DNA of 64,000 nt, taken from positions 163,268 to 227,267 of the forward strand of contig JBBIIG010000001.1 of assembly GCA_037446635.1 (NCBI GenBank). The letters are read 5' to 3'. Shown piece by piece: positions 4,236-34,711 of the stretch. Each line of letters starts with the position of its first letter. Position 1 is the first letter of the stretch. This DNA comes from a bacterium. Its GTDB lineage: Bacteria > Zhuqueibacterota > Zhuqueibacteria > Oceanimicrobiales > Oceanimicrobiaceae. Under the pieces are notes generated by a model that was given only the letters and a program-made list of their open reading frames with translations, had not been told where the DNA came from and made no database searches. Made by a program: the position numbers and the translations under genes.

Positions 4236-6332
<2,097 letters not shown>

Positions 6333-6814: not shown

Positions 6815-8356
6815 ATGTTCGCAAAAGCGTTGGGCGCCGCGGTATTAGGAATCGATGCCTACCTGGTTGAGGTAGAGGCTCACCTCGAGAGCCAGCTTCC
6901 ATACTTCGCGACGGTTGGTTTACCAGAGGGCGCGGTAAAAGAGTCGAAAGAGCGTGTATCCGCTGCTATAAAAAATTGCGGTTTCAAATTTCCACAAAAG
7001 CGCATCACCATCAACCTGGCGCCAGCGGATATTAAAAAAGAGGGCTCGGCGTTCGATCTTCCCATCGCTATCGGAATTCTTGCGGCGATGGGACAGGTGT
7101 CGCCTGACCATCTTAATGATTTCGTCATCCTCGGGGAACTGTCGCTCGATGGCAGCCTGCGCCCCATTCGCGGCGCCCTACCCATCTCATTGGCGGCAAA
7201 AAAGGGCGGTAAAAAAGGAATTCTCCTACCAAAGCCCAACGCCAAGGAAGCCGCCATCACCACCGGCATCGATGTTTTTCCGATGAGCAATCTCGCGGAG
7301 ACAGTCGATTTCTTAAACAGTGCGCTCACAGCCCAACCGTTCAGACTGAATGTGCTGGAAATTTTTTCGCAAAGCCGAAATTATGTGATTGACTTTGCGG
7401 ACGTGAAAGGCCAGGAGCACGTGAAACGTGCGTTGGAAATCGCGGCCGCGGGCGGGCATAATCTGATCATGATCGGCCCTCCTGGCTCCGGTAAAACCAT
7501 GTTGGCAAAACGACTGCCCTCCATTCTGCCGGATTTGACTCTTGACGAGGCTCTGGAGACAACGAAGATCCACTCGGTTGCGGGGCTACTTCCGCCGGAC
7601 ACGGCTTTGATTGCTACGCGTCCGTTCCGTAACCCGCACCACACCATCAGCGACGCCGGACTCATCGGCGGCGGCAAGGTTCCCAAACCCGGCGAAGTCA
7701 GTTTGGCAAATCACGGCGTTCTCTTTTTGGATGAATTGCCGGAATTCAAAAAAAATGTACTTGAGGTCATGCGGCAGCCGCTTGAAGATGGCAAAGTCAC
7801 CATTTCGCGCGCATTGCTTTCGCTCACATATCCGGCTGAAATCATGTTAGTCGCCGCAATGAACCCCTGCCCGTGCGGTTTCAATGGCGATCCCAACAAC
7901 CAGTGCTCATGCACGCCACCGCAAATTCAAAAATATTTGGCCAAAGTTTCCGGACCGTTGTTAGACCGCATCGACATTCATATTGAAGTACCGGCTGTAC
8001 GCTACAAAGAATTGTCCAGCGAAATTTCCGGAGAAAATTCCGCAACGATTCGTGAGCGCGTTAAACGCGCCAGAGAGATTCAACTCCAGCGCTTTCACGC
8101 AAGGAAGAATCTATTTTGCAACGCCCGCATGGAATCGAAAGAAATTCGTCATTACTGCAAAATTGATGAACAGGGCCACGAATTGTTGAAAATGGCGATC
8201 ACAAAATTAGGTTTGTCAGCGCGCGCTTATGATCGAATCTTGAAAGTCTCTCGCACTATCGCGGATCTGGAGGGCTCAGAAGAGATTCGTCCAGAATTCG
8301 TCAGCGAAGCGATTCAATACCGCAGTTTGGATCGAGAATTGAGGACGGGATTTTAG
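6815..8356 (+). CDS. comM: ComM/YifB Mg-chelatase-like AAA+ protein (intact, 513 aa)
   Basis: N-terminal Lon-protease-like domain. Walker [18 protein letters not shown]. Cys cluster [15 protein letters not shown]. Full family length. Confidence 0.93.
7859..8356 (+). repeat. Left copy of the ~498-bp diverged direct repeat (comM 3' end)
   Basis: Aligns codon for codon with 33915..34412. Perfectly identical runs at 8129..8202 = 34185..34258 (74 bp) and 8321..8354 = 34377..34410 (34 bp). Elsewhere there are mostly synonymous differences. Confidence 0.9.
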
Positions 8357-8449
8357 TGAACACGGGTCAAAAGCTCCAGACGTTCCTTTTTGGGGACTCG
8401 ACGGCGATACTCGGGATCGTTGTGTTCTCCAGCGGTCAAGAGCGGGCAC

Positions 8450-10411
8450 TCATCGTGACCGCTCCAGCACGACGACGGACCGTGGTGCGACCTCATAATG
8501 CAACCCATCGACGGCCCGCGTTGCTAAATCCTGGCGGCTGGTATCCACGACACAGTTCCAAGGGCCAGGCTGCTGGATTTGGAATTGCACCGGCTCCCAG
8601 AAGGCGTTGATCATGACGTAAAGGTCGCTCACGCCACGCAAACAATAAGCCAGACAGCGCGAATTATAATCCACCGGGCCGGTCGCGCCGTACCAGTTCA
8701 CCGCCTCGCGCCAAAACCGGCCGGAGGCGATTTCCGGGTGAGCTTTGCGGAACGCAATCATGCGTTGAAAAAACTGAAAGATGTCCCGGTTTTTTTCCAA
8801 CAGCAACCAATCCAGCCATGTCGTCTCGTTGTCCTGGTTGTATGGGTTGTTGTTACCGCGTTGCGTGTTGAGAAATTCGTCGCCCGCGCAGAACATCGGT
8901 GTGCCGTTCGACAACATCAGCAGACAGAAGAAGTTCTTCACCTGTTGCCGGCGCAATGCGATCACCTCGGCGGGCGTGCCCGCATCGCCTTCCCAACCAC
9001 AGTTCCAGCTCACATTGTTGTCCGTGCCATCCGTGTTGTTGTGTCCATTGGCGGCGTTGTGTTTTTGGTTGTAGGCGACGAGATCGTAGAGACAGAAGCC
9101 GTCGTGGGCCGTGATGAAGTTGACGCTCTGATAGGGCCGATAAACATCGCCGGGGCCGTCGGGAAACAAATCATCGCTCCCGTACAATCGCTGCATCAGC
9201 GTGCCGACTTTGCCAGCATCGCCACGGATAAAGGCGCGCACATCATCCCGGTATTGGCCGTTCCACTGCCCCCAGAGCCAGCCCGGATAACTTCGGCCTA
9301 ACAGATTCACCCCGATGTCCCACGCTTCGGCCACGACTCGGAAATCCCCCGCGATTGCGAGGGCGGTGATCTCGCTAACGAGCGCAGCCTCCTCGGTCTG
9401 CGCTTGTCCGTGAATGTCGCGAGCCATGACCGACGCCAAATCGAAACGAAAACCATCCACGCCGAGATTCGCCCAATGACGCAGGCTTTGCAAGATCAGC
9501 GCCCGTGTGCCGTCGTGAGCGCACCGCAACGTGTTGCCGCAGCCGGTATCGTTCCAGTAGTGTCCGTCCGGTCCGAGCAGGTAGTAACTGCTGTTGTCAA
9601 TCCCGCGCCACGAATAGGTCGGGCCAGTATGATCGCCTTCGCATGTATGATTGTACACCACGTCGAGCCAGCCCTCGATTCCCGCTGCGTGAAATGCCCG
9701 GACCATCTGGCGAAACTCGGCCACCGCATCGCGCACCGCGTAACCTTGATGCGGCGCAAAAAAGTTCAACGTCATGTAGCCCCAGTAGTTGCCCTCCTGC
9801 GGATCAAACTGATGGACCGGCAACAACTCGACGACGGTCACGCCGAGCTTTTTTAGGTAAGGAATCTTCTCGATCAATCCGAGAAACGTCCCGCGCCTTT
9901 CCTTAGTCACGCCGGAGTTCGCACGCGCCGTGAAACCTTTGACATGCAACTCATAAATCACAATCTCGTGCCACGCACGCCGGGGCCGCGAGCTTTTTTC
10001 AGGCACCAGCTTCCTCATGGGCAACACCCCAAGCGGCGCGCGTCCATCGTTCGCGCCCGGCTGCATCGCGGTCGCACGCGAAAATTCCGGCGGAAAGAAC
10101 ACTTCTGTGGCAAACGGGTCGAGCAACACCTTTTGCGCGTCAAACCGGTGCATCGCCCCGGTTGGGCCTTCGACCCGGTAGGCGTAGTATCGTGCCCCTG
10201 ACGCCGCTGACTGCAACACGAAGCAATGCCAGATCCGTCCTGTTTTGTTCTGGAATGGATCGAGCCGAAGTTCGAATATTGGCTTTACGAAATCGTTGCG
10301 GTCGTACAACAGCAACGTTACGCGGGTGGCGTGTCGAGAGTACAACGTGAAGTTCCATCCATCGCCCGTCCATGTTGCTCCTGCCGGAACCGGTTGACCT
10401 TCGGTGTTCAT
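8450..10411 (-). CDS. glgX: Glycogen debranching enzyme GlgX (GH13)
   Basis: GH13 catalytic regions GVDGFRFDLASVM, VVAEAWD and NFITAHDGF. Start placed at MNTEGQ (ATG 10411..10409), which forms an ATGA overlap with the pfk stop. Confidence 0.9.
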   Translation of the reverse strand: MNTEGQPVPAGATWTGDGWNFTLYSRHATRVTLLLYDRNDFVKPIFELRLDPFQNKTGRIWHCFVLQSAASGARYYAYRVEGPTGAMHRFDAQKVLLDPFATEVFFPPEFSRATAMQPGANDGRAPLGVLPMRKLVPEKSSRPRRAWHEIVIYELHVKGFTARANSGVTKERRGTFLGLIEKIPYLKKLGVTVVELLPVHQFDPQEGNYWGYMTLNFFAPHQGYAVRDAVAEFRQMVRAFHAAGIEGWLDVVYNHTCEGDHTGPTYSWRGIDNSSYYLLGPDGHYWNDTGCGNTLRCAHDGTRALILQSLRHWANLGVDGFRFDLASVMARDIHGQAQTEEAALVSEITALAIAGDFRVVAEAWDIGVNLLGRSYPGWLWGQWNGQYRDDVRAFIRGDAGKVGTLMQRLYGSDDLFPDGPGDVYRPYQSVNFITAHDGFCLYDLVAYNQKHNAANGHNNTDGTDNNVSWNCGWEGDAGTPAEVIALRRQQVKNFFCLLMLSNGTPMFCAGDEFLNTQRGNNNPYNQDNETTWLDWLLLEKNRDIFQFFQRMIAFRKAHPEIASGRFWREAVNWYGATGPVDYNSRCLAYCLRGVSDLYVMINAFWEPVQFQIQQPGPWNCVVDTSRQDLATRAVDGLHYEVAPRSVVVLERSR

Positions 10412-11661
10412 AATTCCTCCGGTTGGCCAGTGGCGGCCAGTGTCCCGCTCCATACGGGGCCGGCGGGGTCAACGGATTTCTTGCGGCTGGCGAGCAATTC
10501 GATAGGGAGGTGAATGAACTCGTCATGCAGGAATCCAATTACCAGCCCGGTTTTGCCGGCCATGGCGGCGTGGACGGCGTTGCGGGCGAACAAATCGCAA
10601 AGGATCGAGTCTTCGCTGTTCGCTGGGCAGCTGCGCACGTGGTAACTCGGGTCGAAGTAGCGCATCACGATGGGAATCTTCTCCGCTTTGAAATACGCCT
10701 CTATCTGACCACGTAGGAAAGATCCGATATCGCCGAGTTTCACATTTCCGGAGGCATCGCGCTCCGCTCCCACGTTGCCTAACCAGTCCTGCCCAACGCC
10801 CTCGGACACGACAATCACGGCGTGCGCGCGCTTCAGAATCCGCTCCTTCAATGCCGCCAGAAAATTGTCGAGCTTAAACGGCACTTCCGGGATGAGGCAG
10901 AAGTTTACCTCTTGGCTTGCCACCGTCGCACCAACGGCGATGAAGCCGGCGTGACGCCCCATCACTTTCACCAATGCGATGCCGTTGTGCACGCTGCGGG
11001 CCTCCGCGTGCGCGCGGTCGAGCACAGACGCCGCCTCCTGGACCGCAGTCAGATAACCAAAAGTACGTGCCACGAACGCCACGTCGTTGTCTACGGTTTT
11101 GGGGATTCCGACCACCGCCAGCGCGTGACCACGCTGCTGGGCCAATTGAAAAAGCTCGTTGCCACCCCGCTGCGTGCCGTCGCCGCCGACGGTGAAGAGG
11201 ATGTTCACTCCAATCCGCGCGAGGTTTTCGACGGCAGCTACCGTGTTCACCGGCCCGCGCGAAGTGCCAAGCACTGTACCTCCGCGGCGATGAATATCGT
11301 TGACGAACTCGGGCGTCAGCCGAATCGGTGTTTGTCCGTTCTCCGGATCGAGTCCGGGATAGCCGCCGCGAAAACCGAGTACCTCTTTCACACCATAAGC
11401 GTGGTGCAGTTCGTTGAACAACGACCGGATGACGTTGTTCAGGCCAGGACACAGCCCACCGCAGGTGACAATTCCCGCCCGCGTCCGTGCTGGATTGAAG
11501 AACAATTTGGCGCGCGGCCCGGCCATCTCGAATTCCCACTCCTGCCCCGACCTCGGCTGGCCGTGAATGATCAGCTCAGGCACGGACAATTCGTCGCTAA
11601 CGAAACGGCTCAATGGCGAGGGATAGCGAGGTTCTCCCAAGGTTGTTATTCGATGAAGCAT
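10408..11661 (-). CDS. pfk: 6-phosphofructokinase, long PfkA-family type (phosphoryl-donor specificity unclear)
   Basis: TCGGLCPGLN, VGGDGTQRG, GIPKTVDND. 417 aa. Confidence 0.9.
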   Translation of the reverse strand: MLHRITTLGEPRYPSPLSRFVSDELSVPELIIHGQPRSGQEWEFEMAGPRAKLFFNPARTRAGIVTCGGLCPGLNNVIRSLFNELHHAYGVKEVLGFRGGYPGLDPENGQTPIRLTPEFVNDIHRRGGTVLGTSRGPVNTVAAVENLARIGVNILFTVGGDGTQRGGNELFQLAQQRGHALAVVGIPKTVDNDVAFVARTFGYLTAVQEAASVLDRAHAEARSVHNGIALVKVMGRHAGFIAVGATVASQEVNFCLIPEVPFKLDNFLAALKERILKRAHAVIVVSEGVGQDWLGNVGAERDASGNVKLGDIGSFLRGQIEAYFKAEKIPIVMRYFDPSYHVRSCPANSEDSILCDLFARNAVHAAMAGKTGLVIGFLHDEFIHLPIELLASRKKSVDPAGPVWSGTLAATGQPEEL

Positions 11662-11687
11662 GGTTCAGCTCCTTGTGGATTATAGCG

Positions 11688-12863
11688 TTATCGCTCCTGG
11701 AGTACGGCGACGCCTGGGAGTTCTTTCCCCTCGAGAAACTCCAACGACGCACCGCCGCCGGTCGAAATATGCGTCATCTGCTTCGCCATTCCCGCTTGCT
11801 CGACCGCAGCCGCGGAATCACCGCCGCCAATAATCGTCGTCGCTCCTGACAGTTCAGCCAGCGCACTGGCAATCGCAAACGTTCCGGCAGCGAAAGGCTC
11901 CAATTCGAAGACTCCCATTGGTCCGTTCCACACGACGGTTTTCGCCTCGCGCAGATGTTGTGTGAAGAGCTCCACCGTCTGCGGTCCGATGTCGAGGATG
12001 CGCCAGCCGGTTGGGACAGCCTCTACACTGACCACACGCATTTGCGCCTTGGCATCCAGGCTATCCGCAACTACGACATCCACCGGCAGGATTAGCTTGG
12101 AGCCGCCGTCGCGCAGCAATGTTCTGGCCTCCTCAAGTTTGTCATTCTCCACCAATGACTCTCCCACTGCTTTGCCCTGCGCTTTTAGAAAGGTGTTGGC
12201 CATGCCACCCCCAATGAGCAACGAATCCACTTTCCCCAGCAGGTTGTGAATCACCGCGATCTTGTCGGACACCTTCGCGCCTCCCAGCACGGAGACGAAC
12301 GGTCGCGCTGGTGCCGCAAGAGCCTTCCCAAGGAAGGCCAGCTCTTTCTCCATCAAAAACCCTGAGACTGCCGGCAGGTACGAAGTTACACCAACCGTTG
12401 AGGCGTGGGCACGGTGGGCAGAGCCGAAGGCGTCGTTTACGTAAATATCTGCCAACGAAGCAAGTGCCTGGGCAAACCGGGCGTCATTGGCCTCTTCCTC
12501 TGCATGAAACCGAAGGTTCTCGAGGAGCAAAACACCGCCGCGCGGCAGCTTTTTCGTCATGCCCTCTACTACCGGTCCAATACAGTCGGGAGCCATCTGC
12601 ACTGGACGATTGAGAAGTTGGCCGAGTCGCTCAGCCACGGGCCTCAGACTGTATTTTGCCTCGGGTTTTCCTTTCGGCCTGCCAAGGTGAGAGCAAAGAA
12701 TCAGTTGAGCGCCACAGCCGAGTATGTACATGATGGTTGGCAAAGCGGCGCGGATGCGCGTGTCATCACTGACCCGGCTCTTCTCTAACGGCACGTTAAA
12801 GTCCACACGGACGAGCACGCGCTTGCCGGCCATATCGATATCGCGGACCGTCTTCTTGTTCAT
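11688..12863 (-). CDS. pgk: Phosphoglycerate kinase
   Basis: 391 aa. [29 protein letters not shown]. Confidence 0.95.
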
Positions 12864-13114
12864 TGTTACATTCTCCTTAAATTATGAAGCAATTTCCTTT
12901 TGTCAATAGTTGTCTCCCAGGTGATTAGGAGCCGCCTACCTGCCGACAAGACTGGGCAGGGAAATGGTGACACGACGAACGCCAACCGCTGCCGGTGTGG
13001 GCAGGCGCCCCCGGCCATGCAAAATCGCATTGACGATGCGAGCCAGCGCGCTGCTGATGCCGTAATAGGTCGCGCCTCTGCCGCTGATCGTGCAAACCGT
13101 ACCAAAAACAACTC

Positions 13115-14131
13115 TTAACGAGTACCCTTCGTTGCCACATACTGAATCAAGTCCGCTACGCGAACGGAATAGCCCCATTCGTTGTCATACCACGACACGA
13201 CCTTCGCCAGGTTGCCGCCGATTACCAGTGTGTCGAGGGCGCTGAAGATCGAGGAGTGCGCATCGCCTTTGAGATCGCTGGAAACCAGTGGCTCTTCGGA
13301 ATAGGCCAGAATGCCTTGCATGGGGCCTTTGGCGTATTGTTTCATCGCTGCATTGATCTCTTCGACCGTTGCATTCTTCGACAGCACGGCGGTGAAGTCA
13401 ATCACCGAGACGGTGGGAGTCGGCACGCGGAACGCCATGCCGGTGAACTTTCCTTTCAGTTGCGGAATCACCAGTCCCACTGCTTTGGCCGCGCCGGTTT
13501 CGGAGGGGACGATGTTCATCGCTGCCGCACGGGCATCGCGCGGATCTTCGGCTTCGAGATCGAGTAGCCGCTGTGAGTTGGTGTAGGAATGCACCGTGGT
13601 CAGGATGCCTTTCTCGATGCCGAAATTGTCGAAAAGAACTTTGGCGACCGGAGCCAGTCCATTGGTAGTGCAGGAGGCGTTCGAAAGGATGTGATGTTTG
13701 GCGGGATCATACATCTTCTCGTTGACGCCCAGCACGATGGTCAAATCTTCCTCCTTAGCCGGCGCGGTGATGATCACTTTCTTGGCGACGGCATTCAAGT
13801 GCAGCTGGGCCTTGTCCCGTTGCCGGAATAGGCCGGTGGATTCGACGACGATCTCAACACCCAGCTTGGCCCAAGGCAAGCGTGCCGGATCCCGTTCGGC
13901 CAGAATCTTGACCTCGTCGCCGTCGGCCACGAAGCTGTCTTCACGCGCCACCACTTCGCCTGGGAAACGCCCATAGTTCGTATCATACTTGAGCAGGTAC
14001 GTCATGATTTTGATCCGGCCGATATCATTGACCGCAACGACGTCGATCTCTTTGTCGTAGCGCTCGCGGATGGCTTTGTAAACTTGGCGGCCGATCCGTC
14101 CAAAGCCGTTGATTCCGATTCGAATTGACAT
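13115..14131 (-). CDS. gap: Type I glyceraldehyde-3-phosphate dehydrogenase
   Basis: 338 aa. INGFGRIGR. Active-site [17 protein letters not shown]. Confidence 0.95.
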
Positions 14132-14291
14132 GGTTTCATCTCCTTAGTTTTTAAGTCCAAAATCGAGAGCCCAAAGAAAACACGAGCGTGAGGGCCACAA
14201 TACCAGTCGCGATACAAATCGCAGCAAAGTATCGCGAGCGGATTTGCCGCTGCGATGCTTCAGAAGAGAGAATCATATTCAAAGTCCACAA

Positions 14292-15317
14292 TTACAGACA
14301 CAGCGTGGTACCTGTTCCCCGCAACTCGCTGACAGCCTGCTTCACGCGCGCGGCCATGGCCGTTTCCGCCAGGGAGAGATAAGTGCGAGGATCGTACGCC
14401 TTTTTATTGCCAACCTCGCCATCCACCCGGAGAACACCGTCATAATTTTTGAAGAAATGATCCGCAACCGGCCGGCTGAAAGCATACTGCATGTCCGTGT
14501 CGATGTTCATCTTCACCACACCGTAGTCCACCGCTTCCTGAATCTCCTCGATGGTTGAGCCGGAGCCACCGTGAAAAACGAGATAGAAGCGGGCTTGCTC
14601 GCCGTATTTTTTCACCACCGCCTCCTGACAATCTCTAAGGACTTTTGGTTTCAGCTTGACCTGGCCGGGCTTGTAAACGCCATGAACATTGCCGAAGGTC
14701 GCTGCCAGCAGATACCGCGCTCCGGCAATGGCGTTGAGACGTTTCGCGACTTCCAGCGTGTCTTCCGGTGTCGTGTACAACTTATCCGCGGCATGGCCGG
14801 TAACACCGTCCTCCTCGCCGCCCACGACGCCCGTCTCGATTTCGAGGATAAGCTCATTCTTACGGAAGCGTTCGAGTAGTTTCACTGCAATGTCGAGATT
14901 CTCTTTCAGAGAAATGGTGCTGCCGTCGAACATATGGCTGTTGAACAGGTTCGGCTTGCCTGCCGCCCGCCGCCGTTCTGTCTCTTCCACTAACGGTATG
15001 ACGAATTTGTCGAGCTTGTCGGCCAAGCAGTGGTCGGTGTGGAGGGCGACGTAGATCGGGTAACGTTCGGCAACACGATGAACATGTTCGGCCAATGAAA
15101 TCGCACCGAGCGCCATGTCCTTGACCGACGATCCCGATGCAAACGCGCCACCGCCGGTCGAGAGTTGGATAATGCCATCACTCTTGCTTTCAGCCAAGCC
15201 CCGCAGCACGGCATTGGCAGAGGTCAGGGAGCTAACGTTGATCGCGGGATAGGCAAAATGCTTCTCCCGCGCGTGTTCCAACATTTTGCAGTAGATTTCA
15301 TAATTTGCAACTGGCAT
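14292..15317 (-). CDS. fba: Class II fructose-bisphosphate aldolase
   Basis: 341 aa. AYPAINV, LHTDHC, FHGGSGS. Confidence 0.93.
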   Translation of the reverse strand: MPVANYEIYCKMLEHAREKHFAYPAINVSSLTSANAVLRGLAESKSDGIIQLSTGGGAFASGSSVKDMALGAISLAEHVHRVAERYPIYVALHTDHCLADKLDKFVIPLVEETERRRAAGKPNLFNSHMFDGSTISLKENLDIAVKLLERFRKNELILEIETGVVGGEEDGVTGHAADKLYTTPEDTLEVAKRLNAIAGARYLLAATFGNVHGVYKPGQVKLKPKVLRDCQEAVVKKYGEQARFYLVFHGGSGSTIEEIQEAVDYGVVKMNIDTDMQYAFSRPVADHFFKNYDGVLRVDGEVGNKKAYDPRTYLSLAETAMAARVKQAVSELRGTGTTLCL

Positions 15318-15400
15318 ATTTTTTCTCCTGAGAAATTTTCATGCACGATCTTTCCGTATCGCGCCCAGGGCGGCGCTGAGCGCGACACAAAGCAATGCCA

Positions 15401-18654: not shown

Positions 18655-18670
18655 ATTTTCACCTATTTTG

Positions 18671-21154: not shown

Positions 21155-21252
21155 GTATTCACCTTTATAATTGCACCATACTGAAGTCCTTTAGAAAACC
21201 CGACAGGCCAAGGCCTTTTGAGTCATGAGTGATCTGGCCGAGCAAGTCAGCT

Positions 21253-25662: not shown

Positions 25663-25687
25663 GACTCTGTTCCTTTTTAGGTTAAAT

Positions 25688-26800: not shown

Positions 26801-26847
26801 TTTATGGCGCTCCTTTACCTTAAATAAGAATGAACTGATTTGTCGGC

Positions 26848-27204
26848 TTAGTTGATTTTGTTTCGATTTAGAATTTTCTGGATGCAATAGTTGATAGCAT
26901 CGTCATCCTGACTCCCCTGAATAATGTCGTCAGCAATCCACGAACGAAAATCATGTTGCATATCATCGTTACCCCCCAGAAATAAAATCTTGACGCCCTT
27001 CAAATTGGGTGCTATTTGCACAACTTCATCGAGACTGTGCTCGTCCATGTCAACAACGAGCATATCCAACTGTGATTTTGTTATCACTGCGGGAATTTGG
27101 TCGAGTGTGTCAGTGATAGAGACGGTGTGTCCTTGGCGCTGTAAAAGGGCAGTCAGCAAGCTGTTTCTTTGCGCGTCACTTTTAACTAGGATGATTCGAG
27201 ACAT
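26848..27204 (-). CDS. Stand-alone receiver-domain protein, atypical
   Basis: Start at MSRIILV (ATG 27204, GGGAG upstream). CheY-like beta/alpha pattern with the phospho-Asp context MLVVDMD. The usual Thr/Ser (ILFLGGN) and Lys-Pro (ADDIIQGS) positions appear substituted. Confidence 0.7.
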   Translation of the reverse strand: MSRIILVKSDAQRNSLLTALLQRQGHTVSITDTLDQIPAVITKSQLDMLVVDMDEHSLDEVVQIAPNLKGVKILFLGGNDDMQHDFRSWIADDIIQGSQDDDAINYCIQKILNRNKIN

Positions 27205-27298
27205 TTTGATTACTCCCTTCAAATTTGACCGTTCAATCAAAACAAGAATATTTGTTCTTGCCGCCATCGCCCCGGTCTCTCTACCCTTGCTATGGCAT

Positions 27299-27324
27299 CT
27301 CCGGCTGGATCGCTCCAGCCGGAG
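27299..27324. repeat. Perfect 11-bp-stem hairpin (CTCCGGCTGGA tcgc TCCAGCCGGAG)
   Basis: Read directly. Lies between the candidate sigma-54 promoter (27417..27432) and the receiver gene start. No flanking U-tract on either strand. Confidence 0.6.
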
Positions 27325-27416
27325 ATGAGGAGGAAGGGATGTTGGGGGCTCTGCTCAAAGCAACTCAGATTATGATTTGCGCTGGCTGAACTGTTGTTTG
27401 CTCTGGCCATACTTTA

Positions 27417-27432
27417 CCAAGTGTCGTGCCAA
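27417..27432 (-). promoter_or_regulatory. Candidate sigma-54 promoter (copy 2 of the paralogous module)
   Basis: Minus strand reads TTGGCACgacacTTGG with correct -24/-12 spacing. The surrounding ~50 bp is homologous to the region around 31415..31430. Confidence 0.45.
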
Positions 27433-27568
27433 GTGTATTTTGGCAGAATTTAGGTCTATGTAAGCGCTTTTTATATATGGAGTTATGTAGAATGATAAAA
27501 GAACGCGGTCAAGGCATGAAAAACGACGGGCTTTGTGAGATATCAAAAGTTTTATGATATATCATAAT

Positions 27569-27945
27569 TCATAAAAACATGAGACGAATTCCTAATTTTT
27601 TCATGCGGAAAGCAGGGTTCAGACAATTGATTCCGAGAATTTAGGCAGCACATCCAGACCGCTAACCCGGCGCGTGAAGTCGAGGGCTTTCAAATGTGCG
27701 GCGTTCCAATTCAGTCAATTGGCACTACGAAGAAAATGGGCGGATCGTCATCGAGGGAAGAAACCAAAGTAATCATGGATGAATTTGAGCAAGTCATCGA
27801 TGATGGCCTGCGCGGTGACTTCGCCTTTGTCGTAGCCGTATTATTAGTTGAGGAAACGATGCAGGAGCAACCGGTGGAGACTCTTTGATTTAGATGATGA
27901 CGTGTGGGAAAAGCCGGGTCCCATCTCGTGTTTGGTGCCGCGTCA
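27569..27945 (-). pseudogene. Decayed remnant of a sigma-54-dependent activator (C-terminal part, paralog of 31563..32984)
   Basis: The minus strand gives recognisable pieces in shifting frames with stops. LLLHRFLN**YGYDKGEVTAQAIIDDLLKF matches the AAA+ C-terminal region. LTELERR / NAAHLKALDFTRRVSG compares with [28 protein letters not shown]....RMKKLGI compares with [21 protein letters not shown]. Confidence 0.6.
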
Positions 27946-28035
27946 TATTTTTAACTCCATTTTGCTGCTTCTTTAGTATGAAACGCGGTAAAGTGACCGC
28001 TAACTAGCAGGCGCATGTGAAGCTAAACCTTTGCG

Positions 28036-28414
28036 TCAGTCCCAACTTTTAATCCGCAATGGAGCCAACTTCCAGCGTTCGTTTTCCACGAAGGCTGCCA
28101 AAGCGGTCAGAACGATGGTCATTGGCAGGGCGAAAAACTCACCACGAATGATATGGAGTATGGATGCGCTCGTCATAATGAACCCGAGGCCACCGGCAGC
28201 GACCGCTGTCAACTGTGGAAAAACCCCCGTGGCCGCTGGCACAATCAGTCCAATGGCAGCGAGCAACTCGCCGATGCCAATAAAACGCACCAATCCGGCC
28301 GGCACGTCGGCTACCCAGTGGATCGTCTTCGCCAGGAAGTCAAGTTGAAACGTCATCATGAAACCCGCTATCAAGAAGAATCGCGAGGAAAGCCTGAGCA
28401 ATCCACAAGAGCAT
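28036..28414 (-). pseudogene. DoxX_2-like membrane protein with an apparent frameshift near 28370..28385
   Basis: The body (FLIAGFMMTFQLDFLAKTIHWVADVPAGLVRFIGIGELLAAIGLIVPA...) is in one frame. The family-typical N-terminus MLLWIAQAFLAIL (ATG 28414) is in another frame, where it forms the tail of ORF 28340..28873. Confidence 0.55.
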
Positions 28415-28873
28415 ATTCGAGTAGCTGCTGATTGGCAGATTGCTATCCTCAGAAATGAGTCTTACCTTATCACCATCCTTAATTTTGGAGCCACCTCCGG
28501 TGACAATCAGGTCGCCTTCCTCAATCCCTTGCAGTATCCTCAAACCTTTTGAGGAAAAATCACTTATTTCGACGACTTGTCGTCGGGCAATTCCGAATCC
28601 CGGCTCGGTCGGTTCAATTAGGTACACGTAGGGGCCGCGGTAATCGGCATTAACTGCATGAGATGGAACATAAATAGCTCCATCTTGCTCCTCGCTGGCA
28701 AATACTTTTTCATAATACACGGGATGAATGAGAGGTTGAGCCACCTTTTCCTCCTTCGTGCAAGAGCACAATGTTACTGCTGTCAGGAAAGCCATAATGG
28801 CGGGCAGGAACCAAATACTATGGGATTGTAAATTCATTGTCATTGTTGAGGTCCTCATTTTATTTTCTGTCAT
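28340..28873 (-). CDS. Small lipoprotein resembling only the C-terminal domain of an RND periplasmic adaptor (likely a truncated remnant)
   Basis: Signal peptide and lipobox (AFLTAVTLCSC; probable start M at 28837). YVYLIEP...GIARRQVVEISDFSSKGLRILQGIEEGDLIVTGGGSKIKDGDKVRL resembles the adaptor C-terminal barrel. Reads through into the DoxX N-terminus. Confidence 0.5.
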   Translation of the reverse strand: MTENKMRTSTMTMNLQSHSIWFLPAIMAFLTAVTLCSCTKEEKVAQPLIHPVYYEKVFASEEQDGAIYVPSHAVNADYRGPYVYLIEPTEPGFGIARRQVVEISDFSSKGLRILQGIEEGDLIVTGGGSKIKDGDKVRLISEDSNLPISSYSNMLLWIAQAFLAILLDSGFHDDVST

Positions 28874-28980
28874 TAAACCTGGACGGCCAACTCTGATCTA
28901 GTCTTCCTCGTACCTTTTTTTGTATAAAACCATTGTCTCGTTGTGACTTTCTCAAAGAATGGCGCTGATACCGGCCAGCG

Positions 28981-29193
28981 CTAATGTTTACTCACCAAGA
29001 AGCCGGACACAATAAATGCGATCACCACGAACATCAGGGCTTCATAGTGCGGGTTACTGAACCATGTGCAACATCTGTCAAGCAGGCCCTGGAGTTTGCC
29101 ATTTTGATCGAGCAAAGAGCGCATGATACCCATTACAATTGTCCAGCCAAACCAGCGTTTGATACTTCGCATGTAAAATCTCCTTTCACTCAA
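28981..29193 (-). CDS. Small hypothetical membrane protein (about 63-70 aa)
   Basis: ORF track. Two hydrophobic segments (WFGWTIVMGIM and LMFVVIAFIVSGFLV). Co-directional with its neighbours. Confidence 0.4.
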   Translation of the reverse strand: MSERRFYMRSIKRWFGWTIVMGIMRSLLDQNGKLQGLLDRCCTWFSNPHYEALMFVVIAFIVSGFLVSKH

Positions 29194-29243
29194 CTTTTGA
29201 CATCAAGATTAATTCTCCACCCTTACGAAAGCCAGGATTCCAA

Positions 29244-29792
29244 TCAGATCGTCGGCGGAAACTTTGCGAGAATTTCGACAATGGCTTCATCGAGTTTTCT
29301 ATTAAGCGCTTTGGCTGATGCGTTCGGATCGAGCGTTCCAATCGCGACGCCACGCCACACCAACTGTTTAGTACGGGCATCGATGATGTCGAGGATCAAC
29401 GTCCCTTCTTTGAATTGATGGACATCAACGCGGTCGCCACCAAACCACCGGCCAAAGCGTCCATGACCATACCCCCAATCCGTGACATCGATCCTGTCTT
29501 GCGCGCCCACGTGATAAGCGACCAGGAAGTCCGGGCTGGTTGCATCCTTGGTGAATCCTTTGGCGGCCAAATGGCGATCAGCGGATTGTTTGATGCGCTT
29601 GTCCAACAGGCTGTTACTCTGCAAGGCAGCTTCCACGCTGCCTGTGCCGTTGATTGGCGCAGACATCCAGGCGTAGGTTTTGAAGGCCGCAAAGTTGGCT
29701 TCACTGTCATAGTCATGCTTGACGCTCACGGGTGAACAACCGATGGCCAACGCCAGCAGACTTAGGGTCAGAGACAGAACTGTGGTTTTCAT
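29244..29792 (-). CDS. DUF4136 family lipoprotein
   Basis: Start at MKTTVLSLTLSLLALAIGCS (ATG 29792; lipobox AIGC). Family-typical DYDSEANFAAFKTYAW and GTLILDIIDARTKQLVWRGVA. Confidence 0.8.
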   Translation of the reverse strand: MKTTVLSLTLSLLALAIGCSPVSVKHDYDSEANFAAFKTYAWMSAPINGTGSVEAALQSNSLLDKRIKQSADRHLAAKGFTKDATSPDFLVAYHVGAQDRIDVTDWGYGHGRFGRWFGGDRVDVHQFKEGTLILDIIDARTKQLVWRGVAIGTLDPNASAKALNRKLDEAIVEILAKFPPTI

Positions 29793-29808
29793 ATAAGACT
29801 CCCCTGTT

Positions 29809-30369
29809 TCAATGAATCGCCTGGCTTGCCGGAGGTGTGCGGTATTTAACCAGGCGGACTTGCGTTCCCTTTCTGCGTTCAGAGGCAAAGTAAACCTGAT
29901 CCATCACTAAGATCATCAGTAGGACGCCGCAATCTCCTTGCTGCAGTCTTGAAAGAAGCCTCCTGGCGTTTCGCTTTTTGTACTGCTTGTGATAAAAGCC
30001 TTGACCTTGATCACTCACTGCCACCGTCAGCTTTTGATTGTCAATTGTTATCCGAAGGTGAAGACGCTTGCTCTCGTCTTTAGTCTGTAGGTGTTTAATC
30101 GCCTTCACGCAGGCCTGCTCAACCGCAACCTCAATATCTATCACCGCCGTTTCGTCAAAACCCGCTTTTTGAGAAATCGTGGCGACGAAGCTGCGAATTG
30201 GTTCCAGATTTTCGGTATGGCTCGGGATTGTCAGCTCATAAACGTCCCCCATATTGGCTAAGCCAGTCACTGTCTTTGAGAGATCATTGGGCGCGCTCGC
30301 AAGAACATCTGTGGAAACGTCACTTGCATTCGCCACAAAGCCCCTGAGTGTAGTTTGATTTTGAAACAT
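29809..30369 (-). CDS. RsbW/SpoIIAB-like HATPase_c_2 protein (anti-sigma-factor kinase fold), atypical N-box
   Basis: Start at MFQNQ (ATG 30369, AGGAAA upstream). VAVEQACVKAIKH sits where E..tNa..H is expected. G1-like VSDQGQGF. LVMDQV. No STAS partner nearby. Confidence 0.65.
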   Translation of the reverse strand: MFQNQTTLRGFVANASDVSTDVLASAPNDLSKTVTGLANMGDVYELTIPSHTENLEPIRSFVATISQKAGFDETAVIDIEVAVEQACVKAIKHLQTKDESKRLHLRITIDNQKLTVAVSDQGQGFYHKQYKKRNARRLLSRLQQGDCGVLLMILVMDQVYFASERRKGTQVRLVKYRTPPASQAIH

Positions 30370-30511
30370 CGCTTTTTCCTTTCCAAGTACATAACTTGAG
30401 CGTAAACGGCCTGATAAGCAAAGCGGAAGATGAAGTTTGATTGCAGAACAGACGTCGGAATTACCGATCATAGCAAATGTACCTCTGCTTGCCAGTCCGC
30501 CATATTGGGCG

Positions 30512-30976
30512 TCAAGTCCTTTCTTCTATCAGCCATTCCATTACTCCTTCTCTCCCTTGCACGCGCTGTATGCGTTGCTCTGAATGTGCTTTCTGCCGTC
30601 CATCCAAGCTCAACGCGCCAGCGCCGAAGTAAGAGATGAGAAGCGCAGCACCCAACATAGAGAGATTCTTCATAAACATCACCTGATGCATCTGGGCCAA
30701 CATGCTATCCTGTACAGCCCAGAAGTTGTGCATCATCACCGTGACCGGCAACAGGAACAATACCAGTAGCGACGCGCCCAATTTGGCTTTATAACCGAGG
30801 GCGATGCTGAGACCTCCCAAGAGTGCGATCACTCCGGAGAGCGGAACTGCCATCGAAGCCAATGGGATTCCCTGTGCTGCTGCATGTTCAATTGTCTGCT
30901 TCGAAAAAAGGCTGATGCCGGCCATCATGAAGATGAGCGAGAAGAAAATTCTTCCAATCAGTACTGTGTACTTCAT
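30512..30976 (-). CDS. DoxX family membrane protein
   Basis: 154 aa. Four hydrophobic helices. Typical LIGRIFFSLIFMMAGISLF and HNFW motifs. Confidence 0.85.
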   Translation of the reverse strand: MKYTVLIGRIFFSLIFMMAGISLFSKQTIEHAAAQGIPLASMAVPLSGVIALLGGLSIALGYKAKLGASLLVLFLLPVTVMMHNFWAVQDSMLAQMHQVMFMKNLSMLGAALLISYFGAGALSLDGRQKAHSEQRIQRVQGREGVMEWLIEERT

Positions 30977-30992
30977 TGTTGTAATCTCCTTG

Positions 30993-31361
30993 TTAGCTTC
31001 TTGAAGGAGACAATCGGTCTCCTTCTTTTTTAGTGATCAGTTTCCGAATAATGCTTTCGACCTCAACGCGCGGAAACGTGCCCGCCAACGACTCAACCAG
31101 TTTTCCATCCCGGAAAAAAAGAATCGTCGGGCTAGTAAAAATTCGAAAGCGTTCGGCGGTTTTTGGGTTTTCACGCGTATTGATGCGGCAGAACTTCACC
31201 CGTTGGTTATACTGTTCGTCCAGTTTCACCAAACCCGGTTCGATGAGATAGCGGTTACTGAAATTCTCATCGTAAAATATGACCAATACAATTCTGCCCG
31301 GAGCCACAAGCTCAGCATCAAAATTTCGGTCTGTCAATGCCTTCGAAGCCATTCGAATCAC
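30993..31361 (-). CDS. Thioredoxin-fold protein lacking the CxxC active site
   Basis: 122 aa. Aligns to thioredoxin (LTDRNFDAEL..., VLVIFYDENFSNRYLIEP where VDFWAEWCGPCKxxxP is expected, FRIFTSPTILFFRDGKLV). No Cys at the active-site position. Confidence 0.75.
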   Translation of the reverse strand: MIRMASKALTDRNFDAELVAPGRIVLVIFYDENFSNRYLIEPGLVKLDEQYNQRVKFCRINTRENPKTAERFRIFTSPTILFFRDGKLVESLAGTFPRVEVESIIRKLITKKEGDRLSPSRS

Positions 31362-31414
31362 CCCACGTTGGTTACCATCTGCTGACTTTTGTTAATCACT
31401 CGCCATATCAGATA

Positions 31415-31430
31415 TCAATTGATGTGCCAA
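31415..31430 (-). promoter_or_regulatory. Candidate sigma-54 promoter (copy 1) upstream of the Trx-like/DoxX array
   Basis: Minus strand reads TTGGCACatcaaTTGA with correct spacing. It lies ~55 bp upstream of ATG 31361 and ~135 bp downstream of the activator gene. Confidence 0.5.
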
Positions 31431-31562
31431 CGGTATTTTTGGGAGATTGTAGCCGATGTAAGTAGCTTTTCCTACATGATGTTGCGGGATAAATCAAAAA
31501 AGGGAAGCAAGGAGGGAAGACAGCAAGTTTTTATGAAATATCAAAAATTTTATGACACCTCA

Positions 31563-32984
31563 TCATTCGTTTGATGCAACACGTTGAATCCCCAATTTCT
31601 TCATGCGGGAAACCAAAGTTTGGGGATTGATTCCGAGGATTTGAGCAGCGCCATTCGGACCACTGACACGCCAGCGTGTGGAATCCAGCACCTGCAAGAT
31701 GTGAGCACGTTCCACTTCCGTCAAGGTGCGATGTCGCTTCTCATCTTCTCTCTGCGATTCGCCCCGAAACCAATTGCCGATTTCGAGCCGATTGCCATGA
31801 GACAGTATCACGCCGCGTTCGATGATATTTTCCAACTCACGAATATTGCCGGGCCAATTGTAATTCTCCAAAGTAGACAAAACACTGCGGGGGATGACTT
31901 TGATTTCCCGTCCAATTTTCTTGGCGTATTTCCGGACAAAGTAATCCACCAGCAGCGGGATGTCTTCCCGTCTTTCGCAGAGCGGCGGGACATGGATGGG
32001 AAAAACGTTCAGGCGATAGAACAGATCTTCGCGGAAGGTCTTTTCGGCAACAGCCTTTTCCAGGTCGCGGTTGGTTGCCGCAATGATACGCACATCGGTG
32101 CTTAACGTTTGGGTGCCACCGAGACGTTCAAACTCACTGCTTTGGATTACCCGCAGTAATTTGACCTGCATCTCAACCGGCAGTTCGCCGATTTCATCAA
32201 GAAAGATCGTGCCGCCGTTTGCCAGCTCGAAGCGCCCAACCTTGGATTTCAGCGCGCCAGTAAAAGCACCCTTTTCATGGCCGAAAAGCTCGCTTTCGAT
32301 CAGGCTGGCTGGAAGCGCCGCACAGTTGACCTTAACCAAAGGGCGGTTATGACGCAAGCTAATGTTATGGATGGCGCGCGCGATGAGCTCTTTGCCGGTG
32401 CCAGTTTCGCCCTGGATGAGAACGGTCGCGTCCGTCTCCGCGACGTGCTCGACCGCGTGCAGCACCTCTTGAATCCGACGGCTCTTACCGATAATCGCTT
32501 CAAAATTGTGCGTGAGCTTGATCTCCTGCTGCAAATAAACATTTTCCTCCTGCAGACGATTTTTTAACTGCTCTATTTCATTGAATGCTTTTTTTAGAGC
32601 TGCTTCAGCCTGGCGCCGTTCGGTGATGTCGCGCGCAAACCAGCAAACATATTCCTGGTTTTCGAATTCGACCAGACTACCCGCGACTTCAACAGGAAGC
32701 TCCCGACCGTCCCTGGTCTCAATGGTTCGCTCGAATCGCACAGTACCATGCTGTCTCATATTCTCCCGAAGTTCCTCGACATAGGCGGGATCGAGTCCAA
32801 AGCCAAGTTCTGGCGGCTTTTTACCTACCATCTCCTCCGGCGCATAACCAACCATTCGGCAGGTTGCATCGTTGACGCGACGTATCGTATCTTCGGAGTC
32901 GATCCAGAGAATAGCGTCAGGATCTTTTTCGATGGTAAAGTGGGAAAGAAGTATGGTCCTTTCGAATTCTTTTGAGGCTTCCAT
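31563..32984 (-). CDS. Sigma-54-dependent transcriptional activator (PAS sensor + AAA+ + Fis-type HTH; no receiver domain)
   Basis: 473 aa. Walker A GETGTGKE. Sigma-54 contact loop EKGAFTGA. C-terminal [21 protein letters not shown]. Confidence 0.92.
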
Positions 32985-33627
32985 AATTGGTTCCTACCTT
33001 CAAATTTTTTGGCAATTCTTACGGATTTCTGCGGTGCAACCTATGCCGTGGATGGTATGAGATCGTTTCTCCCGTCGCAACGAGAGATGTTCTCGCTATG
33101 ATCAAATATACGAAAGCCGGTTCTCAAATCAAGCACATTTATTTAAATGGCAGGATAAGAACGACGGCCCAGGGCGAGTAACGTCATCCCACAATATTTT
33201 TGAGAAATCGAATCCGTTCTCTTGCCTTTTCCCAAAGCCCAGAACGCCTAAAATGCAGTCACTGGAAATGAGCAAAAGGATCCAAGCAACTTTGACTTCT
33301 GTCTTCTGACAACCCGTCTTGACATGAGCGCTGATTCTATTAGGTCAACAAAGTTTCCCAAGACGACTTTGCGTAGTAAAGCCCGCTACAGACTATTGGG
33401 AAATCGATCCAGGAAAGCCACACCGTGTTACTCGCCGAATCGTCGAGCAGATAAACCGGCTAAATACTTCGGCATCACCCTCCCAAGGCAGACAGAGGAA
33501 CTCCCGCAGACTGGAGGGTCCGAGGGCAACAGATTGTTGACTTCTGACTGGAGGCACGACCGGTTACGCTCGGCGCCAGTTGCTACTGGTGGGGCTGAGT
33601 CTCCTAAAAATAGAAAGCCATAAATGT

Positions 33628-33828
33628 TCAGACACTATTGATGTTAGCCACTAACACCTTTTCATCTATCCCAACCACCTCGGCCAACTTACGCACATGT
33701 TTCCTCCTCGGCACCACCCTATCCAGTTCCCAATGGACGACGGACATTTCGTTGACGCCAAGAAGGTTCGCCAGTTGCACCTGGGAAAGGCCTTGTTCCT
33801 GACGGAATCTTTTGATATATTGCCCCAA
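33628..33828 (-). CDS. XRE-family helix-turn-helix protein (66 aa)
   Basis: GLSQVQLANLLGVNEMSVVHWE is a classic HTH_3 core. Confidence 0.8.
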   Translation of the reverse strand: MGQYIKRFRQEQGLSQVQLANLLGVNEMSVVHWELDRVVPRRKHVRKLAEVVGIDEKVLVANINSV

Positions 33829-33914
33829 TGTCTTTGCTTCGATAGGCTGAATGGGTTCGACCTTAGGAATGCGGAAGCTGATTTTGAAGCACTTTTGGTA
33901 TTTGTTAATGGGAG

Positions 33915-34412
33915 ATGAACGGGTGCCCGTGCGGGTTTAATGGCGATCCTCACAATGAATGCTCGTGCACGCCGCCGCAGATCCAAAAATACCTGGCCAA
34001 AGTTTCCGGGCCGCTTTTGGATCGCATCGATATTCACATCGAGGTACCGGCGGTGCGGTATAAAGAACTGGCCAGCGACATTTCTGGGGAAAACTCTGCT
34101 ACGATCCGTGAACGCGTCAAGCGGGCTCGAGAGCTCCAACTCAAACGCTTTCAGTCAAGGAAGAATCTCTTCTGCAACGCGCGGATGGAATCGAAAGAAA
34201 TTCGTCATTACTGCAAAATTGATGAACAGGGCCACGAATTGTTGAAAATGGCGATCACGAAATTAGGGTTGTCGGCGCGCGCCTATGATCGCATTCTCAA
34301 AGTCTCGCGCACCATTGCCGATCTCGAAGGCTCCGAAGAAATACGCCCGGAGTGTGTCAGCGAGGCGATTCAGTATCGCAGTTTGGATCGAGAATTGAGG
34401 ACGGGATTTTGA
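33915..34412 (+). pseudogene. comM: Displaced comM 3' fragment (last 165 codons only; right copy of the direct repeat)
   Basis: Begins abruptly at the codon equivalent to Met349 of the intact comM. By manual alignment there are about 10 aa differences and many synonymous ones. Its own stop is TGA, versus TAG in the intact copy. No upstream comM sequence. Confidence 0.88.
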
Positions 34413-34578
34413 AGCGCCAAACGTTTCCGCAAAAAGTTGGCTGGCACCGGGTAACCATTCCGGAGTAAACCCAACCGAAATCTGCTAAGCTTAAGGGAAT
34501 GAATCTCGACCCTGCTACCTATATTGCGCTTCAACGAGTTATTAAGTGGATTTAGTTGAATTTTTGCCAACTGAAATA

Positions 34579-34608
34579 AAACAAGCCCTTTCAATGAAGG
34601 GCTTGTTT
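34579..34608 (-). terminator. Rho-independent terminator hairpin (better on the minus strand)
   Basis: AAACAAGCCCTT tcaatg AAGGGCTTGTTT. On the minus strand the stem is followed by TTTTATTT. Confidence 0.6.
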
Positions 34609-34711
34609 CGGGTGAATATCGCGATTGATGTGTCCGATCATTCCGCCGGGCTAATATAGCACGGGGCTTCCTCGCCTAACCAATATGGCTTCAGATCAGA
34701 AGGGATGATGC

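Follow-up and report, generated by a model that had tools for sequence, protein, structure and literature searches.

The elements e14 and phage 21, at icd of E. coli, and ICESt1 and ICESt3, at fda, use a tyrosine integrase and replace the 3' end of their target gene. Elements of the e14 type carry the integrase gene beside the attachment (att) site, and the duplicate that they leave is tens to ~165 nt long and nearly identical to the original. In Acinetobacter, the gene comM is the target of Tn7-like islands of the AbaR/Tn6022 type, which interrupt comM, generate a 5-bp duplication and carry tni/tns genes. Croucher and colleagues reportedly argued in 2016 that transformation cures cells of parasites and that parasites hence target competence genes. 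Here we analysed a 64-kb window (the whole stretch of DNA under study, positions 163,268 to 227,267 of contig JBBIIG010000001.1, GenBank assembly GCA_037446635.1) from an uncultured bacterium of the Zhuqueibacterota, in which comM is separated from a second, diverged copy of its own 3' end by 25.5 kb of other DNA. The right border of this insert is best read as the scar left by an element with a large serine recombinase (LSR), and on balance we favour a history in which most of that element was later replaced, and comM repaired, by DNA from a relative.

Genes of the comM family are the most frequent LSR target in the literature (PMC10083194), and homologues annotated as Mg chelatase or ATP-dependent protease are the target of 12.4% of predicted site-specific LSRs (Durrant et al. 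2022, PMC10083194). Phage WO of the sr1WO group, from Wolbachia, integrates in a Mg-chelatase gene and carries an HTH_XRE gene at its 3' end, beside the Mg-chelatase fragment (PMC9203015). The features that define the two edges of the present insert are the following.

6815..8356, + strand: comM, an intact open reading frame (ORF) of 513 aa; codons 1-351 are native, and an imported 3' end follows in frame from about codon 352
7844..7893, + strand: attB-like site within comM, probably regenerated, …ATGAACCCC TG CCCGTGCGG…; codons 344-360 around NPCPCG
7859..8356, + strand: copy 1 of the comM 3' end, codons 349-513, imported and now the functional end of comM
8129..8202 = 34185..34258, + strand: 74-bp run identical in the two copies, covering codons 439-463
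8321..8354 = 34377..34410, + strand: 34-bp run identical in the two copies
33628-33828, - strand: XRE-family HTH regulator (HTH_3/HTH_31 in Pfam, phage repressors in PHROG), 86 nt from copy 2
33904..33948, + strand: attR-type junction, with element arm …GTTAATGGGAGATGAACGGG, central TG (33924-33925) and comM arm CCCGTGCGGG…
33915..34412, + strand: copy 2 of the comM 3' end, the displaced native end, with an intact ORF, homology from 33924 and stop codon TGA

The reading frame of comM is uninterrupted and its product has three Pfam domains (ChlI, Mg_chelatase and Mg_chelatase_C), in agreement with a preliminary description of this DNA that had reported an intact comM and a second copy of its last 165 codons. 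The 498-bp repeat was recovered independently by a repeat finder and by direct alignment, with a spacing of 26,056 bp between the copies. BLASTP aligned the two encoded ends with 155 of 165 residues identical, that is, with exactly 10 differences where about 10 had been counted by hand. At the nucleotide level 79 of 495 positions differ (84% identity), and the changes are largely silent: the Nei-Gojobori method gave a proportion of synonymous differences (pS) of 0.61, synonymous and nonsynonymous distances (dS and dN) of 1.24 and 0.034, and a dN/dS ratio (omega) of 0.028. The different stop codons (TAG in copy 1, TGA in copy 2) and the two identical runs were likewise as first described. A hairpin with a 13-bp stem 3' of copy 2 (34578..34609) is probably the original comM terminator; no terminator was found 3' of copy 1, which converges on glgX.

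Copy 2 had been described as starting abruptly at the equivalent of Met349. The abruptness was borne out and the starting point was not. Copy 2 opens with ATG AAC, as comM does, and then has GGG in place of CCC at codon 351, a change at all three positions. Pro351 is invariant in every relative examined, and N350, P351, C352, C354 and G355 are invariant in the ComM alignment. Because GGG replaces the codon of an invariant proline, the true homology of copy 2 appears to begin at the TGC of codon 352 (33924) rather than at Met349.

The sequence at this position has the symmetry of a recombination site. The junction at 33904-33948 contains a perfect 5-nt dyad, ACGGG-TG-CCCGT, in which the arm from the element (ACGGG) and that from comM (CCCGT) are inverted repeats of each other. 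Dyad matches number 5/5 at the inner positions and 9/20 overall at the junction, compared to 2/5 and 4/20 in native comM, and only 0.15% of the TG dinucleotides in the window reach 5/5. To place this join among known ones, IMG/VR was scanned with ComM and then with a 19-sequence ComM alignment, which yielded 80 viral comM loci. The first scan returned two contigs with fragments from residue 343, one of which (L176) has two large serine recombinases nearby. About 20 of the 80 loci hold an internal comM fragment that starts at residues 335-352; other DNA extends for 4 kb or more upstream of it, and for ~5 kb except in one locus. The contigs that bear these fragments mostly end just past the comM stop codon, which is the geometry of attR. 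Approximately ten of the proviral joins read x-H-G-C-P-C-G, with the variants HACPCG, HDCPCG and HPCPCG, compared to M-N-P-C-P-C-G in native comM and M-N-G-C-P-C-G in copy 2 of the window. The corresponding nucleotides are CAC GGN / TGY CCN TGY GG in the proviruses and AAC GGG / TGC CCG TGC GG in the window. The join between codons 351 and 352 is common to L228, L235, L253, L258, L251, L230, L231, L239-L241 and L249. LSR genes, with Resolvase, Recombinase and Zn_ribbon_recom domains, adjoin the joins in L258, L239-L241, L226, L246, L252, L254/L255 and L237, and an LSR ORF lies within the flank in 33 of the 80 loci. Since the join and its signature match those of LSR proviruses and comM is the foremost LSR target, the right junction of the window is best read as an LSR attR scar. 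The join, at codon 351/352, is site-specific and coincides with the left edge of the repeat, unlike that of a tyrosine-integrase element with a long identical core.

Several of the viral loci show further features of LSR integration into comM. In four of them the LSR ORF reads across the join into comM (L258:3343-5172, L239:3343-5100, L241:3358-5112 and L240:3604-5100); attP would therefore lie at or inside the 3' end of the recombinase gene, and integration would alter the C-terminus of the recombinase. Two others (L254:5001-5126 and L255:5001-5114) have a 40-codon piece of comM, residues ~345-386, between two LSR genes on opposite strands, and are probably two tandem prophages using neighbouring attB sites. 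Across the viral loci L179-L258, comM is broken at residues ~215-222, 274-283, 296-307, 341/342, 351/352 and 386-390, with LSR genes adjoining each class. Thus comM apparently offers serine recombinases no fewer than five or six separate attB sites, most of them located at conserved motifs such as Walker A.

The XRE gene noted earlier at the right edge of the insert was recovered, and it lies where such a gene lies in an LSR provirus: in L249 an XRE gene in the same orientation is found ~60 nt from attR. The XRE product of the window also resembles the C-terminal HTH of the LSRs in L183 (E 9e-8). It is likely the only gene of the serine-recombinase element to have survived. At the nucleotide level, the element-side sequence at 33000-33923 resembles none of the proviral loci. 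At the left edge, copy 1 matches the native comM arm almost perfectly over its first 24 nt past the TG. The site now found in comM therefore resembles a plain attB rather than an element arm, and excision by an LSR would not be expected.

Comparison with relatives indicates that the DNA between the two copies is an addition. The native flank on its right contains the following genes.

34877-35077, + strand: rpsU, Ribosomal_S21 (Pfam), the first gene after copy 2
35101-35287, - strand: 6S RNA gene (Rfam RF00013, 54.8 bits)

The best matches to comM are in metagenome-assembled genomes (MAGs) of candidate division KSB1, at 74-76% identity. Scans of genomes and metagenomes returned no comM closer than 76%, the 90% aa identity of a fragment on contig L161 (see below) apart, and exact-sequence look-ups of comM and of the fragment protein found no match on record. 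In the KSB1 MAG L002, SpoVR-DUF444-PrkA, comM, the 6S RNA gene and dmpA-nfeD-SPFH are consecutive, as in the outer flanks of the window, and only 1.5 kb separates comM from dmpA; in both L002 and L001 the 6S RNA gene follows comM within ~1 kb, at ~0.8 kb in L001. Given these empty sites, 8357-33914 is an insertion relative to the closest sampled relatives. An empty site with comM followed directly by rpsU had been anticipated; the empty site was found, with 6S RNA rather than rpsU after comM, and rpsU (S21) was not detected at this position in the KSB1 relatives. No second comM copy was present in any of the 164 loci examined. The 6S RNA gene just 3' of comM is conserved in L001 and L002, and S21 stands between comM and 6S only in the genome studied here. 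On the other side, the SpoVR-DUF444-PrkA operon (1627-6332, - strand) lies directly 5' of comM and is syntenic with L002. The window contains no tRNA or tmRNA genes.

We next asked which of the two copies belongs to this genome. Of the sites at which only one of the copies has G or C, 44 favour copy 2 and 21 copy 1 (p = 0.006). The GC content of third codon positions (GC3) is 0.60 in the 5' part of comM, 0.51 in copy 1 and 0.60 in copy 2. Subtracting the value of the 5' part from that of the 3' part gave -0.089 for copy 1 and +0.008 for copy 2; the same difference in 154 intact comM genes (last ~161 codons minus first 348) was +0.015±0.043, and a drop as large as that of copy 1 occurred in only 1.3% of them. 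By codon-usage likelihood, copy 2 groups with the host flanks, whereas copy 1 groups with the low-GC3 part of the insert; the log-likelihood difference at 61 synonymously different codons is 9.4. On the strength of the GC bias, the GC3 control and codon usage, copy 2 is the displaced native end and copy 1 was imported with the insert, as the preliminary description had proposed when it placed the native fragment at the distal junction and ascribed the intactness of comM to an imported end. The omega of 0.03 means that each end was under selection within a functional gene, in a genome of its own. Approximately four derived amino acid changes fall in copy 2 and approximately four in copy 1, and copy 2 contains no stop codon; because it has neither an excess of changes nor a stop, its displacement is recent on this time scale.

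The insert is not uniform. Its genes and the flanking host genes fall into three compositional classes, with GC3 values of 0.65±0.07 in the host flanks (30 genes), 0.73±0.05 in a GC-rich block (10 genes; class limits 8450-26800) and 0.54±0.07 in a backbone (8 genes; class limits 26848-33900).

8450..26887, - strand: GC-rich block, 18.4 kb with 10 co-oriented genes; GC 0.56-0.66, GC3 0.65-0.79
8450-10453, - strand: glgX, GlgX (Pfam)
10408-11661, - strand: pfk, phosphofructokinase
11688-12863, - strand: pgk, phosphoglycerate kinase (PGK)
13115-14131, - strand: gap, glyceraldehyde-3-phosphate dehydrogenase (GAPDH)
14292-15317, - strand: fba, class II fructose-bisphosphate aldolase (FBA)
15401-17077, - strand: AspT/YidE-type transporter
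17074-18654, - strand: pckA, ATP-dependent phosphoenolpyruvate carboxykinase (ATP-PEPCK)
18671-21154, - strand: glgP, glycogen phosphorylase
21253-25662, - strand: fused RND pump and outer-membrane factor (OMF), a single polypeptide of 1469 aa with AcrB-type RND and OEP domains
25688-26800, - strand: membrane-fusion protein (MFP), from its ATG start; 26887 is the end of a longer ORF with a TTG start
26848..33168, - strand: low-GC3 backbone of chromosomal-type genes
27584-27718: remnant of a sigma-54 activator tail (HTH_8), 45% to the activator at 31563-32984
28340-28873: ORF of an MFP-like lipoprotein, 177 aa, with the lipobox and C-terminal domain kept and the middle missing
31563-32984, - strand: PAS-sigma54 activator

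The cargo had been described as central metabolism, and Pfam indeed identified enzymes of glycogen metabolism, glycolysis and gluconeogenesis, together with RND efflux. The backbone genes encode a 139-aa ORF, DoxX_2, the degenerate MFP-like lipoprotein, DUF4136, HATPase_c_2, DoxX, thioredoxin (Trx) and the PAS-sigma54 activator. Orthologues of the sigma54-Trx(-DoxX) genes, at 72-85% nucleotide identity, occur in ordinary and mutually different chromosomal contexts in L168-L171, and ftsH lies 3' of the sigma54-Trx-DoxX orthologues in L168, L170 and L171. A short GAPDH-like fragment (L169:10138-10293; 44% over 52 aa to gap of the block) was seen among small ORFs 3' of the sigma-54 activator orthologue. 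Within the backbone, a decayed stretch runs from 27268 to 28873 and includes 0.77 kb free of ORFs. The 177-aa ORF at its end was considered as a tie to the MFP of the block and set aside, the similarity being merely 25% over 80 aa. Collectively, the 25.5 kb are a mosaic of an imported comM end, a nested and younger GC-rich block and chromosomal-type genes. The earlier reading of 8357..33914 as an integrated element therefore holds for the insertion itself and not for a single coherent element.

Searches for the machinery of integration agreed with the earlier report that no integrase, transposase or transfer gene is left. Pfam detected none among the larger ORFs between ~1.6 and 63 kb of the window. 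Six-frame Pfam scans of 27200-28400 and 32950-33950 revealed no recombinase remnant, only DoxX_2 and the XRE HTH, and a six-frame search of the whole 64 kb with tblastn and a profile built from 43 comM-associated LSRs found no LSR (best E 0.5). Resolvase, Recombinase and Zn_ribbon matched no large ORF, and Phage_integrase matched neither the ORFs nor the two regions scanned in six frames. There are no Tns/Tni genes and no short target-site duplication, and the comM ends are the only repeats that flank the insert. The backbone ORFs matched no prophage structural, packaging, lysis or replication family in a PHROGs scan; the matches were the XRE gene and, weakly (E 1.3e-5), the MFP-like ORF to a family of unknown function. 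The part of the insert that is likely a remnant of the element amounts to at most ~0.75 kb.

The comM-block arrangement was found again on a 17.4-kb JGI contig (L161), which is colinear with the window from the RND pump to glgX at 90-96% nucleotide identity, with per-gene dS of 0.12-0.35. The edge of the block-linked DNA is marked by one further feature.

8357..8402: 46-bp segment after the comM stop codon, ~87% shared with L161 and absent after copy 2; left edge of the block-linked DNA

Beyond glgX, L161 continues with a ~690-bp scrap, the same 46 bp and a comM 3' fragment, in that order. The arrangement of comM, 46 bp and block thus exists independently of this assembly. The scrap (16060-16603) is a more diverged copy (79-85%) of the region upstream of pckA with its first ~113 codons, and looks like the remnant of an older, largely deleted copy of the block. 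The comM fragment of L161 is 90% aa identical to that of the window, starts at about codon 342 and has unrelated sequence beyond; its cut at codon 341/342 corresponds to a second class of LSR junction (L226, L246, L248, L252 and L256). Copy 1, copy 2 and the L161 end are about equidistant from one another (dS 1.0-1.6, omega 0.03-0.04), with a dS of 1.59 between copy 1 and L161. The gap between this value and the dS of the block shows that the block was exchanged between lineages far more recently than the comM genes diverged. Similarly, PckA of the block has many close relatives (97%, 95% and 93%, in a set that spans 83-97%), whereas comM has none. The only hint of a wider origin of the block is the similarity of the RND-OMF protein (78% aa identity) and its MFP partner (67%) to a pair in Geobacter sp. 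AOG1. In that genome the pump operon lies a few kb 3' of comM (L040:14142-19822) in the opposite orientation; with no other synteny, this proximity was taken as coincidence.

The two identical runs had been put forward as candidate crossover cores, and this was ruled out. The bias towards GC in copy 2 has the same direction on both flanks of the 74-bp run (29:15 on the left, 15:6 on the right), so there is no switch of parentage at the run, and the third comM end, that of L161, differs from both copies inside it. The run is nevertheless too long for chance: with ~16 synonymous sites, the probability that it stayed unchanged at a pS of 0.61 is ~3e-7. Coding constraint does not account for it, because codons 439-463 vary among relatives. 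From the alignments, the 74-bp run is probably a gene-conversion tract between the copies, and both runs are best read as gene-conversion patches.

A history that would accommodate these results begins with an LSR element that integrated into comM at the NPCPCG codons, with crossover at the TG of codon 352. Integration would have broken comM in two and given rise to the right junction as it stands today, where the element arm and the XRE gene adjoin copy 2, the native 3' end, with the terminator still attached and rpsU and 6S beyond it. In a second step, incoming DNA from a relative would have taken the place of the left junction and of almost the whole element, recombinase included. In this donor an intact comM would have been followed by the GC-rich block for carbon metabolism and efflux and by further chromosomal genes. 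On the left the replacement would have been anchored by comM homology, and its right end would be a non-homologous one within the element, immediately to the left of the XRE gene. comM would thereby have become whole again (native 5' part plus copy 1) and attB would have been regenerated, with attR, the XRE gene and copy 2 left behind. The 25.5-kb composite island would now be immobile, its old 3' end stranded and still undecayed, and gene conversion between the copies would have produced the 74-bp and 34-bp runs. We regard this replacement and repair of comM as probable on balance, since it explains why each copy has a single parentage, why the recombinase is gone, why the content is chromosomal in type and why comM and block occur together in L161.

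Several points weigh against such a history. Its order of events and its central recombinational step are inferred, and the step calls for the import of 25 kb with one illegitimate end. The block, with dS of 0.12-0.35, abuts comM ends at a dS of 1.6, which requires further exchange between lineages. The affinity to L161 is a three-way mosaic: L161 sides with copy 2 over the first 120-165 nt (16:5) and with copy 1 at 8024-8078 (8:3), a pattern that could point instead to a crossover within the repeat. Gene conversion has to be invoked separately for the two long identical runs. The element arm of the window keeps ATG AAC as in native comM, where most proviral arms have CAC or CAT, and the change of CCC to GGG could stem from quasi-palindrome correction in an unselected fragment. 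Finally, neither a genome with the intact element nor an empty site from the same species was found.

Other explanations were weighed as well. A single integrative element whose attP contained a full replacement 3' end (copy 1), with its serine or tyrosine recombinase lost or acting in trans, corresponds to the model of the preliminary description. It would by itself yield the geometry seen here, a copy 1 that is foreign throughout and a copy 2 that is native throughout. It would also put the join at a recombinase hot spot, would explain why the block has a comM fragment beside it in L161 too, and has precedents in tyrosine-integrase elements such as e14 and phage 21, which replace the 3' end of icd. 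We consider it unlikely: a full replacement end occurs in 0 of the 80 viral comM loci, where comM is simply split, and over its inner 24 nt copy 1 resembles a comM (B'-type) arm, not an element arm. Moreover, comM ends that had travelled with the block should differ as little as the block does, yet their dS is 1.59. The content is metabolic and chromosomal in type, with PHROG matches confined to the XRE gene and one weak case, and the sigma54-Trx-DoxX module is core-chromosomal in relatives. A particular form of this idea, an island with no recombinase of its own that uses the LSR landing site in trans and restores comM with a complete replacement 3' end, seems to us more doubtful still. If true, such an island would let its host keep the competence helicase while ferrying an 18-kb carbon and efflux block between KSB1-related species, with L161 as a second instance. 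Of comparably low probability is Campbell-type homologous integration of a circle from a relative that already had an LSR element in comM. Like a specialised-transducing molecule, the circle would have contained the right end of the element, attR, the comM 3' end of the relative, the block and downstream genes, and it would have entered through the 0.5-kb comM homology, perhaps in an identical run. This requires no recombinase in the present genome and accounts for both the direct repeat and the abrupt right junction; the 74-bp run would favour RecA-dependent exchange between sequences only 84% identical, and a crossover near 8020 would fit the mosaic affinity to L161. It predicts, however, that the GC bias reverses across the crossover, whereas copy 2 is the richer on both sides, and codon usage assigns all of copy 1 to a foreign source and all of copy 2 to the host.

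Two further explanations were considered. An assembly artefact, in which a 26,056-bp circle sharing the 74-bp run was threaded into the chromosome or the contig is a chimera of strains, has to be considered for an uncultured source whose best comM matches are all MAGs: an exact 74-bp repeat can mislead short-read assemblers, and the spacing of the copies would equal the size of the circle. We hold it to be very improbable, since the junction of comM, 46 bp and glgX is reproduced in the independent contig L161 and the right junction (33923/33924) shares no k-mer with the sequence upstream in comM, so that a mis-join in the assembly graph cannot create it. The GC bias of the left segment contradicts the swapped pairing, in which the chromosomal gene would consist of the left part of copy 1 and the right part of copy 2; a 26-kb circle lacking replication genes is unlikely to be abundant; and both flanks are syntenic with L002. 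An ancient tandem duplication in place with later insertions, or a Tn7-like insertion of the AbaR type, would also give a direct repeat of the gene end or, in the second case, make use of a known target, comM being a Tn7-like target in Acinetobacter. The substitution pattern and the gene content refute both, and we give them practically no weight. A dN/dS of 0.03 at a dS of 1.24 is incompatible with a fragment that has long been free, copy 2 has as few derived amino acid changes as copy 1, and the relatives L001 and L002 have empty sites rather than the same old duplication. A Tn7-like event is further contradicted by an uninterrupted comM with neither Tns/Tni genes nor a short target-site duplication.

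The locus also bears on annotation and on gene flow. A stray Mg-chelatase C-terminal ORF that starts with 'G-C-P-C-G' flags a serine-recombinase junction and may serve as an annotation marker. The many ORFs of 160-170 aa annotated as 'Mg chelatase' were considered as cases of repeated integration at Met349 and rejected: the three long-contig examples examined (L164-L166) are frameshift-split comM genes that restart at the internal Met349 (L164:8955-10498, L165:8971-10510 and L166:8956-10495), and in L164 the halves overlap by ATGA at that codon. Judged by these examples, many short Mg-chelatase ORFs in public protein sets appear to be artefacts of frameshifts or gene calling. The block itself indicates that whole sets of glycolysis and gluconeogenesis genes move between related environmental bacteria.

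Among the described systems, the LSR elements found in comM (sr1WO and the IMG/VR loci L258, L239-L241, L230, L251, L253 and L249) have the same target gene and the same breakpoint, 351/352, as the window. These proviruses and the window also agree in the change of the Pro351 codon to GGN, in the dyad around a central TG, in an XRE gene beside the comM 3' fragment and in the native DNA that follows it. In contrast to the proviruses, the window has no recombinase and no phage genes, its comM is not split and is accompanied by a second, diverged 3' end, its interior is 25 kb of genes for carbon metabolism, efflux and regulation, and its left junction is like an ordinary attB. Two features that define the LSR class, the presence of the recombinase and a target split without duplication, are thus absent, and the locus most probably derives from LSR integration into comM, a well-documented phenomenon.

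The window resembles e14, phage 21, ICESt1 and ICESt3 in that the target is kept intact by an imported 3' end and the displaced native end forms a direct repeat. It differs from the e14 type in the length and divergence of the repeat (498 bp at 84% identity), in the lack of an integrase and in the serine-recombinase signature at the join. The unitary history of such elements also fits poorly with the dS of the block (0.12-0.35) compared to that of the comM ends (1.59) and with the three compositional classes. With the AbaR/Tn6022 islands, only the host gene family is held in common. The locus may preserve the aftermath of a conflict between competence genes and the elements that target them, in an uncultured phylum. 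As in the idea attributed to Croucher and colleagues, a competence gene would have been restored with DNA from a relative and the recombinase of the element removed; here the cure would have been imprecise, its non-homologous end leaving behind attR, the XRE gene and the old gene end, and the genome would have gained 25 kb.

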